NCBI GenBank assembly: GCA_963720755.1
Contig: CAVRGP010000002.1
Span: 128,001-192,000, forward strand
DNA length: 64,000 nt
Direction: 5' to 3'
Source of the DNA: an uncultured Chloroflexia bacterium
GTDB taxonomy: Bacteria; Chloroflexota; Limnocylindria; Limnocylindrales; CSP1-4
Each line of letters opens with the position of its first letter. Within the stretch, counting starts at the first letter, position 1. Of the stretch, positions 28,179 through 32,788 are shown piece by piece. The translations under genes and the position numbers were made by a program. The notes below the pieces were generated by a model, which worked only from the letters and a program-made list of their open reading frames with translations, ran no database searches and was not told where the DNA came from.

Positions 28179-30791
28179 CTACTCGTGATGACTGGGTGCG
28201 ACAGCCGCCCCGCCGTGTTCGTGCCCGTCGCCGCGAGCCTGCCCGTGCCCGTTGCCGTTGGTCGCGACGCCCGTCACCGTCGGCGGCAGCATCGGCAACA
28301 TCCGCGCCGTGTCGATGAGCCGGCCCTGCTCGGCCGCCCTCGTCGCCCAGTCACGCTCTCGCCGGATGTAGGTGACTTCCGTTTCGCGCTCCACCGCGGC
28401 GATGGCCATCAGGTCGATCATCGGCTGCGACCGGCTGGTGTGTGAGAGCTCGAAGTCCGCGCCATCGCGGAGCGCGTCGTACGGGCAGGCATCGACGCAG
28501 ATGCCGCACAGGATGCAGCGACTCTCGTCGACGTCGTACTTCTGCAGGACCCGTGGCTTGGGCATCAGGGCGCCGGTCGGGCAGGTCTCCGCACAGCGGC
28601 CGCAGGAGACGCACGGGGTGTCGTTGAGGCTCATGTCGAGCGGCGTGGTGACGAGCGTGTCGAAGCCGATCCGCATGAAGTCGTAGCAGGCCGCGCCGAC
28701 GACCTCCGAGCAGACCTGGGCGCATCGCCCGCAGTCGATGCAGCGTGACGGTTCACGCAGGATGAAGGCGTGGGAGTCGTCCCGGATGTAGTCGTGGTTG
28801 ACGCCCGTGAACCGGTTCTCCGTGACACTCCGGAAGCCCGCGCCCGCGTGATGTTGCGGTTCGAGTGTGGGCAGGGTCGTCCCGTACTCGATCCCGAGCC
28901 GGCGCAGGTCGCAGAAGCCGATCGCTTCGCAGGTGCACTGGAGGCAACGGGTGGACTCGGCGACGGCGTCCTCGCGGGTGTACGGCAGCTCGTACTCGAC
29001 GTAGGAATGGTTCCGTTCCTCGGCCTCGAGCGCGCTCAGCCGGTAGCGCGGCGTCTTGGCTTCGCTGGTGAACGGCACGATCGACAGGAATTCAGGCTGC
29101 GGTTCAGCCAGGGTCTGCCGGGTCCGGATGGCCGACAGGTCGAGGCCCTTGAGATAGGCATCGACCGCATAGGCGGACCGTCGACCTTCGGCGATGGCCT
29201 GGACCACCGTCGCCGCGCCGATCCGGACGTCGCCGGTACCGAAGACACCGGGACGGCCCGTCTCGAACGTCACGGCATCGGCCTTGAGACGGCGCTGCCG
29301 GGTCGCCTCCGGTCCCTCCGAGCCAGGCCCGATCCAGGTCAGATCCGGGCCCTGACCGATGGCCAGCAGGACGCGATCGCAGGGGATCGTGAACTCCGTG
29401 CCCGGCGCCGGTTCCGGGCGTCTCCGGCCCGAGGCATCCGGCGCGCCGAGGGCCATCCGGATGAACTCGACGCCGGTCACCGTCCCGTCGTCGTCCGTGA
29501 TGACCCGGACCGGACCCGCCTGGAAGATGGCGGTGACACCTTCCTCGATCGCTTCGTGGACCTCGTTGGAGGCCGGCATGTCCTTCATGTCGCGGCGATA
29601 GACGAGGGTGACCTCGGCGGCGCCCTGGCGGATCGATGTCCGTGAGCAGTCCATCGAGGTGAACCCGCCACCGATCACGACGACCCGCTTGCCGGCGTGA
29701 TCCGGATACGGGAGCCCGAGCGTCGCGGTCCGCAGGTACTCCAGTCCGTCCAGGCACTCGGCCGCGTCCTCGCCCGGGATCCCGAGCTTGTTGGTGTCGT
29801 AGCAGCCGATCGCGACGACGACTGCATCGAACCCCTGGAAGGTCAGGTCGTCGAGCGTGAAATCCGTTCCCAGGCCGGCGTTGCAGACGATCTTGCCGCC
29901 CAGCCGGGTCACCGACTCGTACTCCGCCTCGAGGACCTCGACCTTCGGCAGGCGATATTGCGGGATCCCGTACCGGAGCATGCCGCCCGGGGCGGGGTCG
30001 CGCTCGAACACGGTCACGTCGTGACCGGCCAGGAGCAGGTAGAAGGCGGCCGACATCCCGGCCGGGCCGGAGCCGATGACCGCGGCTCGACGACCGGTCG
30101 GGGCCTGCCGTTCGAACGGCAGCGGTGGATCGACATCCTCGTCGAGCATCGCCTTGAGGACCTGATCGCCGGCATAGCGGTGGCTGTCGCGGATGGCGAT
30201 CGCCTCGTCCACCTCGTCACGCCGGCAGTGCTCCTCGCACGGGGCAGGACAGACCCGCCCGAGCACGCTCGGGAACGGGATGGTCCGCTTGAAGATCCGG
30301 GTGCTCTCGCGCCAGTCGGCCTCGGCGTTGGCCTTCAGGAACCCGGGGATATCGATATGGCTCGGGCACTTGTTCTGGCAGGGCGGCAGGCAGTAGGCGT
30401 TGTGGTCGGAGAAGATCAGCTCGAGGTTCGTCCGGCGGAGGCGCCGAAGCTCGTCGGTCTGTGTCTGGACCTTCATCTCGGGCTCGCACGTGCGCGAGCA
30501 GGAGATCGGCGGATGCTCCTCGCCTTCGACCTCGACCACGCACATCCGGCACGCCCCGAAGCCGGGCAACTTCGGCTCGTAGCACAGCGTCGGGATCTCG
30601 ATCCCGTTGTCGCGGCAAACCTCCAGGATCGTCTGGCCCTCGAAGCCCTCGACGACCCGGCCGTCGACTTCGATCCGGATGGGCAGCGAGGATTGCGGGC
30701 GCTGCGGCGACTGCGTATCGAGCAGGCGCTCGGCCAGCGACTCCGGCTCGATCGCGGAAGTGGCGTCGGGGCGTGTCATCAGGTCAGCCAT
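28179..30791 (-). CDS. Fe-S flavoprotein: NuoG-like N-terminal clusters + GltD/SfrB-type FAD/NAD(P)H domain + C-terminal half of NuoI
   Basis: 2Fe-2S IPTLC..[74 protein letters not shown]; final [23 protein letters not shown]..DFEL. Confidence 0.85.
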   Translation of the reverse strand: [870 protein letters not shown]

Positions 30792-30798
30792 GGTCGCC

Positions 30799-32124: not shown

Positions 32125-32128
32125 CGTC

Positions 32129-32788
32129 CTACGCCCTCCCCGGTCCGCCGAGGGCCGCGTCGAGCGCGCTCAGATAGGTCGCCTCGGAGGGTCGGTGGGC
32201 GTCCATCGCGGCCGCCTGGACGGTCGCATCCGCGGGTTCGAATCGGAGGTGATGGTAGTACGTCGCGGTCCCGTAGATCATCGCGTACCAGGCACCCGTG
32301 CGCTGGCTGATCCGCTTGAGCGCCGCCACAGGAAGGTAGCCGTAGACCGACTGGGCCGCCTCGAGGATCTGGAGCATGTGCGCGGGATCATGGTCGTATT
32401 CCTCGAGGATCCCGTCGACGGCCGCCAGGTCGACGGGGGCGAACGGCACGTACACACGATCCGGGACGGGGCGGCCGGAGCGGCGGAGCGCAGATTCCTC
32501 GCGCCGCTCGCCGTAGGTCTCGGGGGCGCCCCAGTGGACGTGGAACCGGCCACGCGTGTCCACCCCGCCCATGTCGATGCACTCGATCGGGCAGGCCTGT
32601 GCGCACTGGAAGCAGGTCTCGCACTTGAGCGTGCCCCACTCGTCGTACAGCAGCTGCAACCGGCCACGGAACTTGGGCGGCGGATCCCGGCGGTCCTCGG
32701 GATACATGACGGTGACCTTGGGTTCGACGAACCGACGCAGGGTGAGGGCCATCCCCTTGGCGATACCGAGACCGGGCAGGAGGCTCAT
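32129..32788 (-). CDS. Fusion of the NuoI N-terminal half and the NuoE N-terminal helical domain
   Basis: GMALTLRRF..VTVMYPE..FRGR..CETCFQCAQACP (single ferredoxin motif), then LQILEAAQSVYGYLP..IYGTATYY with no 2Fe-2S cysteines. ATG 32788 overlaps the nuoH stop. Confidence 0.85.
   Translation of the reverse strand: MSLLPGLGIAKGMALTLRRFVEPKVTVMYPEDRRDPPPKFRGRLQLLYDEWGTLKCETCFQCAQACPIECIDMGGVDTRGRFHVHWGAPETYGERREESALRRSGRPVPDRVYVPFAPVDLAAVDGILEEYDHDPAHMLQILEAAQSVYGYLPVAALKRISQRTGAWYAMIYGTATYYHHLRFEPADATVQAAAMDAHRPSEATYLSALDAALGGPGRA

Follow-up and report, generated by a model that had tools for sequence, protein, structure and literature searches.

This analysis concerns a complex I operon of a soil Chloroflexota bacterium, in which the iron-sulfur (FeS) subunit NuoI is divided between two proteins. 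The operon lies within a stretch of 64,000 nucleotides (the window; G+C ~69%) of contig CAVRGP010000002.1 in assembly GCA_963720755.1. The two proteins, here called X and Y, each carry one half of NuoI joined to other domains, and their genes stand on either side of a nuoF-like gene. Judging from the gene content and the domain homologies, the operon probably encodes a proton-pumping NAD(P)H:quinone oxidoreductase with an 11-subunit-type core, whose NuoI would be built from two polypeptides that share the clusters N6a and N6b.

The operon consists of 13 densely packed genes on the minus strand, running from 36959 to 22153 in the order nuoA-B-C-D-H-X-nuoF-Y-J-K-L-M-N. The usual slot of nuoI, the nuoH/nuoJ interval, is thus occupied by three genes, namely X (32129-32788, minus strand; 219 residues), the nuoF-like gene (30799..32124, minus strand; 441 residues) and Y (28179-30791, minus strand; 870 residues). 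X is immediately 3' of nuoH and Y immediately 5' of nuoJ, which are the positions at which a nuoI gene would be found. The start of X shares one nucleotide with the stop of nuoH (TGATG), and the intergenic gaps are 4 nt between X and nuoF and 7 nt between nuoF and Y. NCBIfam models assign the ten remaining proteins to NuoA, B, C, D, H, J, K, L, M and N, and the corresponding complex I core set is complete within this single cluster. An earlier note, made from the letters of this DNA alone, had given these coordinates and this gene order and had pointed to the lack of a standalone nuoI; all three hold in the open reading frames (ORFs) and in the NCBIfam assignments.

The N-terminal half of NuoI is found in X residues 1-85 (32534..32788, minus strand). 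Residues 12-75 match positions 1-63 of the 121 positions of the NuoI model TIGR01971 (NCBIfam; E 2.5e-13), and when the first 105 residues were scanned alone, the nine best of the 23 families matched were NuoI models. X has the amphipathic N-terminus and the YPE motif of NuoI, and a single CxxCxxCxxxCP motif (C56, C59, C62, C66). The C-terminal half is found in Y residues 746-805 (28377..28556, minus strand), where residues 747-792 match positions 71-116 of the same model (E 2.9e-14) and the motif C759/C762/C765/C769-P is followed by AL...DFE. Scanning the last 131 residues of Y alone gave NuoI/NdhI models as the ten best of 54 NCBIfam families, always with the C-terminal half of the model. 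The rest of Y, residues 806-870 with the stop codon (28179..28376, minus strand), is a variable Gly/His-rich tail that is unconserved among homologues. The two CxxCxxCxxxCP motifs that NuoI has in one chain are therefore distributed here, one in X and the other at the end of Y, and all eight of their cysteines are invariant in 9 of 9 diverse homologues. The earlier note had read X as the start of NuoI, with one motif, continuing into the NuoE helical domain, and the end of Y as the second half of NuoI; it had named TIGR01971 as the model to run on both proteins and a closer match of the Y end to generic ferredoxins as the result that would speak against it. Complementary parts of that model were matched, and the family ranking places the Y tail with NuoI.

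The position of the break was defined with hhalign, using as reference four NuoI proteins that are intact and encoded in canonical nuo operons elsewhere in the Chloroflexota. X aligned to columns 4-80 (probability 99.0%, E 8.7e-18) and Y to columns 50-136 minus a 13-column gap (probability 98.4%, E 5.9e-15), the gap being exactly the segment carried by X. The Y tail corresponds to canonical NuoI columns ~82-136 and is complementary to X, and the canonical inter-motif segment is shared without overlap, with columns 63-80 in X and columns 82-96 in Y. This complementary coverage places the break in the loop between the two cysteine motifs.

A count of the ferredoxin-type motifs leads to the same division. 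X has one such motif and Y has three, of which C684 and C727 mark two that sit in a region homologous to the solved dicluster domain of StnC. If these two are paired in cis, as the StnC homology indicates, one orphan motif is left in each protein, and these are the NuoI halves. A motif of this kind in a 2x[4Fe-4S] ferredoxin fold contributes three cysteines to one cluster and its fourth to the other. Each motif would thus ligate both clusters, and N6a and N6b would be ligated jointly by X and Y. We infer this assembly in trans from the parity of the motifs and from homology. Structure prediction from nine-row alignments gave a mean predicted local distance difference test (pLDDT) score of 51.6 for X, where only the NuoE-like helices 118-186 were confident (pLDDT 75-95), and of 50.7 for Y, where only the 2Fe-2S and Rossmann parts were confident and residues 563-870 fell below 50. 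A complex prediction with X 1-105, Y 740-835 and two 4Fe-4S clusters scored 0.28 against a mark of 0.32, the partner's own fold being uncertain.

No intact NuoI was detected elsewhere in the genome (3.0 Mb in 15 contigs, 93.6% complete): none of the 11 TIGR01971 matches was above the cut-off, and the two best were X and Y themselves. This agrees with the expectation of the earlier note that no other nuoI would serve the complex. Profile search likewise returned one NuoD and one NuoH each, with no second copy in the assembly, and the operon containing X, nuoF and Y is thus, from its gene content, the only complex I found in this organism. Other complex I-like sequences occur on contig 11 (L111:4777-7937, minus strand), where a fused NuoE-NuoF of 705 residues is followed by a 348-residue ORF with 2Fe-2S, Fer4 and Molybdop_Fe4S4 domains that ends just past the Fe4S4 domain. 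Most simply, the NuoE-NuoF fusion and the NuoG-like ORF are the diaphorase of a formate dehydrogenase; the 348-residue ORF could be a formate dehydrogenase alpha subunit broken by a selenocysteine TGA, or a split gene.

The split is general in the class to which this bacterium belongs, the Limnocylindria. X was found in 41 of 41 relatives and in 147 of 151 genomes of the class, covering 35 of 35 genera and five families; six of the X-positive genomes are unpublished, and the count without them is 141/145. The four genomes without an X match are 83-91% complete. Across the phylum, a profile of nine X sequences at a threshold of E <= 1e-30 identified X in 96 of 401 genomes; this search superseded a single-sequence search in which the fusion was mixed with matches to ordinary NuoI. 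Presence was complete in the families f1 (23/23), f2 (4/4), f3 (2/2), f4 (18/18), f10 (5/5), f25 (30/30) and f29 (11/11), and one of the two genomes of f20 had X, while the phylum profile search found none in, for example, f9 (0/18), f11 (0/25), f15 (0/25) and f22 (0/26). A search of protein representatives returned 1803 matches at E <= 0.001 and 51 at E <= 1e-30, many of them fragments. Chloroflexus and Roseiflexus were considered as carriers and dropped, as the contiguous 2M cluster there, which carries its own nuoI in the parts of Tang 2011 and of the C. aggregans transcriptome paper that describe it, is a different enzyme. Two copies of X were seen in three genomes (G235, G152 and G121); the second copy in G235 (L115:9643-10644) follows a nuoB, with no nuoF or Y adjacent in the stretch examined.

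Gene order is equally constant. We compared 80 related loci from public metagenome-assembled genomes (MAGs), many titled Candidatus Limnocylindrales or Limnocylindria and 50 of them spanning nuoA to nuoL, and all 80 are collinear with the window, including the nuoH-X and Y-nuoJ adjacencies, as far as each locus reaches. Y was matched in 70 of the 80, the match reaching at least residue 790 in 58 of these. An identical order in 80/80 loci from other assemblies rules against a misassembly, which the earlier note had named as a way in which its reading could fail, and an assembly artefact, a pseudogene or a frameshifted nuoI is scarcely conceivable given also that the ORFs are all intact with tight junctions and that Logan contigs from three runs cover the region, with bridges over the nuoH/X junction (X1 record 8 and X2 record 16) and the X/nuoF junction (X1 record 7). 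The Logan contigs are a weak support, being short and from one soil study, with one run that is possibly the source sample.

Outside the class, the three genes can be placed differently. Four genomes of f25 and f29 (G275, G320 and G299, each a single contig, and G219 in six contigs) have a canonical 14-gene operon with their only intact NuoI, and in addition a separate four-gene cluster nuoB-X-nuoF-Y, a second NuoD and NuoH and, at a third place, a second NuoK. In G275, G320 and G299 the second cluster is nuoA-nuoC-nuoD-nuoH without nuoB, which indicates that its nuoB travels with X, nuoF and Y. The order is nuoB-nuoD-X-F-Y in f3 and f5, and A-B-C-D-H-X-F-Y in f20. The NuoD that accompanies a split NuoI gives a two-piece PF00346 match (5/5), and the canonical NuoD a one-piece match (4/4). 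X homologues of the B-X-F-Y type come from Ktedonobacteraceae MAGs and from Dictyobacter alpinus and D. arantiisoli, and are mostly named hypothetical proteins; identity to the B-X-F-Y type is 84% for the homologues in Dictyobacter. The claim of the earlier note that a whole module sits inside nuoI is hence accurate for the Limnocylindria, but elsewhere the triad of X, nuoF and Y comes after nuoB or nuoD.

Beyond the NuoI halves, the three proteins make up an electron-input module. In X, residues 118-188 (32225..32437, minus strand) form a NuoE/HydC-type N-terminal helical domain, with residues 125-188 matching positions 2-65 of the 145 positions of PF01257 (NuoE); Pfam detects no thioredoxin-like 2Fe-2S (N1a) domain of NuoE in X. 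The best matches of the helical domain in the PDB are 9bov_C and 8oh5_A. Two X homologues, L021:9378-10205 (f4) and L022:9475-10296 (f2), are longer, at 273-275 residues, and retain the thioredoxin-like C-terminal part of NuoE with its first cysteine pair, the second pair being lost. These longer forms suggest that cluster N1a was lost stepwise, the X of the window being without the entire domain.

The NuoF protein is closest to the HydB family. Its best PDB matches are HydB (8a6t_B, 5.3e-99), 9bov_B, NfnB and StnB (E 5e-99 to 2e-95), and the NuoF chains of complex I rank behind these, with E values of 1.7e-79 or weaker. The alignment to HydB is confined to its core (residues 158-573 of 630), Pfam finds PF01512 and PF10589 alone, and both Pfam and the PDB alignment show that the N- and C-terminal FeS domains of HydB and StnB are absent. 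The motif GRGGAGF of the flavin mononucleotide (FMN) site and 42 invariant columns are retained.

In Y, a 2Fe-2S domain of the N1b/HydA type (residues 37-112; 30456..30683, minus strand; PF13510 E 3.6e-20) with invariant C70, C81, C84 and C98 is followed by a GltD/NfnB-like domain (residues 134-549; 29145..30392, minus strand; PF14691, PF07992, TIGR01318 E 1.5e-89) that has two 4Fe-4S sites, a flavin adenine dinucleotide (FAD) site and an NADPH-type site with a YRR motif. Residues 600-745 (28557..28994, minus strand) form a NuoG/HydA-like FeS region, with a CxxCxC...C site and the cis dicluster domain of the C684 and C727 motifs (PF22117 at residues 677-742, and homology to StnC). The best solved relatives of Y are 9bov_A (E 2.7e-160), StnC from the transhydrogenase Stn of Sporomusa (8oh5_C, E 6.6e-139) and NfnA of NfnABC (9n5u_A). 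The 9bov_A and 8oh5_C matches span Y 38-770, with good residue-level alignment to about Y 745, past which StnC continues into an FdhF-like domain and Y into NuoI; the lengths are 870 residues for Y and 1172-1178 for StnC and 9bov_A. The earlier note was right that an electron-input module is present, and had recognised neither the GltD-like NADPH/FAD domain nor the kinship with the Stn/Nfn-Bfu family.

With its 2Fe-2S domain, GltD insertion and HydA-like clusters, Y is a subunit of the BfuA/StnC type. The parts of these systems that are tied to bifurcation are all lost, however: NuoF lacks the extra clusters of HydB/StnB, equivalent to B2-B5 of BfuB, X lacks the 2Fe-2S of NuoE and BfuC, and Y lacks the FdhF-like C-terminal domain of StnC, with no Molybdopterin or Molybdop_Fe4S4 match in Pfam. 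The module is not a canonical N-module either, as it has neither the 2Fe-2S of NuoE nor the molybdopterin-like C-terminal domain of NuoG. In the part of the Stn structure report that bears on this, electrons leave the FAD in StnC and reach the FMN subunit by way of clusters C7 to C3, and StnC clusters C1 and C2 are a non-functional side branch toward the FdhF-like domain (PMC10482914).

These features point to an enzyme with the following organization. Its core would consist of NuoA, B, C, D, H, J, K, L, M and N together with the two-chain NuoI, to which X would contribute the membrane-proximal N-terminal part with the first CxxCxxCxxxCP motif and the C-terminus of Y the second. X may anchor the assembly on NuoH, NuoB and NuoD through its NuoI N-terminus and hold NuoF through its NuoE helical domain. 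The remainder of X, NuoF and Y would be an electron-input module that has its origin in the Stn/Nfn-Bfu (HydABC-like) family, with the FMN and NADH site in NuoF, and with the 2Fe-2S cluster, the GltD-like FAD/NADPH domain and a HydA/NuoG-like FeS chain in Y. Electrons from NADH via FMN and from NADPH via FAD would feed one common FeS wire. The side branch that goes nowhere in Stn would in this enzyme run by way of the shared N6a and N6b to the N2 cluster of NuoB and from there to quinone, and would thereby power the pumping of protons. Y would carry its FeS chain to within ~10-20 residues of N6a, and the two covalent tethers could plausibly stand in for the docking otherwise provided by the missing C-terminal domain of NuoG. 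The electron path, the use of both nucleotides and the proton pumping are all predicted from the sequences.

A more ambitious version can be proposed tentatively, and we would sooner expect it to fail than to hold. It describes a two-flavin complex I with N6a and N6b built at a protein interface, which would pump with either NADH or NADPH, serve the cell as its NADH/NADPH transhydrogenase and run in reverse for NADPH synthesis, and which would have been born when a Stn-like cassette landed in nuoI. Specifically, the reverse run would make NADPH directly from quinol and the proton-motive force, and the Stn-like gene cassette would have entered nuoI at the inter-motif loop, in a complex of 11 subunits. 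A search of the 93.6%-complete genome for a PntB-type transhydrogenase (PF02233) returned nothing, an absence that fits a role of the two-flavin module in the NADH/NADPH balance and does not show it.

Several observations weigh against the shared-NuoI enzyme as we have described it. The TIGR01971 scores of X (49.7 bits) and Y (52.7 bits) are both far below the cut-off of 113.05, as is expected when each is half a protein. When the Y tail was searched against the PDB, polyferredoxins (FwdF) took the top three whole-sequence scores, each summed over eight weak repeats, and the NuoI/TYKY chains came next, with single stretches of ~50 residues at E ~1e-13. The Pfam dicluster models Fer4_7, Fer4_9, Fer4_10 and Fer4_21 take Y 720-774 as one two-motif unit, and hhalign pairs the first motif of canonical NuoI with C727 of Y. 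Percent identities to the subunits of second complexes elsewhere are mixed, with NuoB and NuoD nearer to the split type and NuoH and NuoC not clearly so. Lastly, the NuoF of this class lacks the second cysteine of its N3 motif, and the NADH branch may be altered.

The N3 motif bears on what is the best of the alternatives, if still an unlikely one, namely that the NuoF branch is impaired or merely structural in this class and that the enzyme acts chiefly as an NADPH:quinone oxidoreductase by way of the FAD site in the GltD-like domain. In the window the motif (residues 349-355, in the region 31060-31080) reads CGKTIPC, with threonine for the second cysteine. The pattern E[AS]CGK[T/S]IPCR was matched in 73 of the 80 Limnocylindrales loci, with threonine in 48, serine in 25 and cysteine in none, and the other seven loci gave no pattern match; L021 has alanine at this position. 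NuoF of the B-X-F-Y type and canonical NuoF retain CGKCxPC, so the missing cysteine possibly means a modified NADH branch in the class, and the absence of N1a adds to this. On the other hand, the FMN-site motif and the 42 invariant columns described above are retained, three N3 cysteines remain, and serine or threonine may act as the fourth ligand. Moreover, NADH oxidation is the expected task of the genome's only complex I.

A somewhat poorer candidate, to which we give little credence, keeps the same complex and changes its topology, such that C727 and C759 of Y form a dicluster in cis and the X motif is paired in trans with C684 of Y. The coverage of Y 720-774 as a single unit by the Pfam models and the pairing of C727 with the first NuoI motif favor this pairing, as does the C737-C759 spacing of 22 residues. 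The spacing in clostridial ferredoxins is close to 22 residues. Nevertheless, the dicluster domain of the solved StnC and 9bov_A, whose two motifs pair mutually, has its residue-level counterpart in Y 677-745, and X and Y share out the inter-motif segment of canonical NuoI without any overlap.

Two further alternatives are both very improbable. The first is that X, NuoF and Y are a bifurcating or confurcating Bfu unit like that of the predicted Nuo-Bfu, using NADH and reduced ferredoxin, or performing a ferredoxin-linked transhydrogenation of the Stn type. All three subunits are indeed nearest to Stn/Nfn-Bfu/HydABC structures, and Nuo-Bfu complexes have been predicted from BfuABC genes that lie embedded among nuo genes (PMC9304861). 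However, the 441-residue NuoF without terminal FeS domains and the X without a 2Fe-2S domain argue against it, as homologues without clusters B2-B5 do not bifurcate by the criterion given in the relevant section of Schut et al. 2022 (PMC9304861). The second holds that X, NuoF and Y are a soluble, undocked oxidoreductase, the membrane complex having no NuoI or an unrelated ferredoxin. The separation of the triad from the membrane-arm genes in several lineages would agree with this, but there the triad accompanies nuoB (or nuoB-nuoD) and the matching nuoA-C-D-H cluster is without nuoB. In addition, X retains the NuoH-contacting N-terminus of NuoI, and no other NuoI-like gene in the genome reaches the cut-off.

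The membrane and quinone-module genes of the operon, all on the minus strand, are nuoA (36603..36959; NF005839 E 1.8e-26), nuoB (35911..36612; TIGR01957, 218 bits, above cut-off), nuoC (35360..35908; TIGR01961 E 7.4e-33), nuoD (34131..35351; NF008974 E 1.8e-136), nuoH (32788..34134; NF004741, 323.6 bits, above cut-off), nuoJ (27576..28169; NF005168 E 2.1e-33), nuoK (27262..27579; NF004322 E 3.4e-33), nuoL (25295..27265; NF005141, 721 bits), nuoM (23649..25295; TIGR01972, 584 bits) and nuoN (22153..23652; TIGR01770, 409 bits). In the sequence of NuoB, the N2 ligands are intact (a tandem CC, GDCTC and GCPP), and NuoD retains the motif HGVLR and lacks NiFe cysteines, making it the quinone type.

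Directly upstream of nuoA lies a gene for a methyltransferase of the MidA/NDUFAF7 family (37318..39129, minus strand; PF02636 E 8e-54 at residues 286-530 of the longest ORF, whose coordinates are given here, the real start being uncertain). The eukaryotic MidA/NDUFAF7 family methylates an arginine of the NuoD homologue. A PF02636 gene is retained upstream of nuoA in 57 of the 59 related loci that reach at least 700 nt upstream, and likewise in L022 (f2); in L112 (f3) it lies directly downstream of Y. The product is a probable assembly or modification factor of complex I. Elsewhere in the window, an ORF of 1814 residues (4854-10298, plus strand) carries protein O-mannosyltransferase (PMT) domains that are confined to the C-terminal third, and its ~1000 N-terminal residues have no Pfam match at E <= 1e-8.

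Complex I is among the best-studied enzymes, and each of its core subunits, 14 (or 11) in number, is regarded as a fixed entity. A natural split of a core FeS subunit, with clusters shared between chains, would be unusual for a ferredoxin fold, and it bears on how the N-module was recruited to an 11-subunit ancestor. It would also link the soluble Stn/Nfn-Bfu transhydrogenases to a quinone-reducing proton pump, and it suggests that NADPH can feed the respiratory chain directly. The carriers include a class of soil and freshwater bacteria, the Limnocylindria, where this is the only complex I found. In public annotations X is a 'ferredoxin' or 'hypothetical protein' and Y an 'FAD-dependent oxidoreductase' or 'formate dehydrogenase major subunit', and metabolic reconstructions therefore probably mis-score the complex. 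As relatives of cultured Dictyobacter are among the carriers, the prediction could be tested by purification and cryo-electron microscopy.

The earlier note knew of no described complex I with this architecture. Likewise, in the literature searched, as far as its sections on such clusters go, neither a split NuoI nor a Nuo complex whose N-module has a GltD domain is described, and supplements (Figure S2 of PMC4758237; tables of PMC9304861 and PMC4453560) may list such clusters. In Spero et al. 2015, many Chloroflexi are given as having 13 of the 14 subunits and lacking NuoG (PMC4453560). The arrangement described here accounts for that scoring.

Compared with the canonical 14-subunit complex I (Thermus thermophilus, 2fug/4hea), the operon has all the membrane and Q-module subunits, the N2 ligands of NuoB, a quinone-type NuoD, the FMN site of NuoF, and a chain of 2Fe-2S and 4Fe-4S clusters into N6a/N6b. 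Unlike in the canonical enzyme, NuoI is split over two chains, NuoE is reduced to its helical domain without N1a, the NuoG part has an inserted GltD-like FAD/NADPH domain and is without the large C-terminal domain, and N3 has three cysteines in this class. Compared with StnABC (8oh5), 9bov and NfnABC (9n5u), Y 38-745 is collinear with StnC from residue 4 to ~680, GltD insertion included, and NuoF is similar to StnB, as is the X helical domain to StnA. Here, however, the NuoI C-half stands where Stn has the FdhF-like domain, neither the additional StnB clusters nor the StnA 2Fe-2S cluster is present, and the enzyme with X, NuoF and Y is predicted to be membrane-bound and non-bifurcating.

Three other systems combine parts of this design. 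Like the predicted Nuo-Bfu, the operon encodes a HydABC-family module midway through a nuo cluster, where it replaces NuoEFG (PMC9304861). Nuo-Bfu is defined there through a BfuB with ferredoxin-type domains and is placed in Deferribacteres, Proteobacteria, Planctomycetes and Nitrospirae, and the GltD domain, the split NuoI and a Chloroflexi Nuo do not figure in the passages of that paper that describe it. Degli Esposti 2016 presents, in the part concerned, Mbx-like operons in which a GltD-type flavoprotein substitutes for NuoI (PMC4758237); a GltD-type NAD(P)H flavoprotein is joined to a complex I-related membrane module in both cases, whereas here both halves of NuoI are retained and the core is that of a quinone-reducing Nuo. 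The 11-subunit nuoABCDHIJKLMN enzymes (NDH-1 type) keep NuoI whole and lack an NAD(P)H module of their own, as far as the account in PMC3144371 goes, unlike the enzyme proposed here. Even so, NuoD is matched best by NF008974, a model of the short type, as in these enzymes, and removing X, nuoF and Y as a unit from the operon leaves exactly their order, A-B-C-D-H-[I]-J-K-L-M-N.

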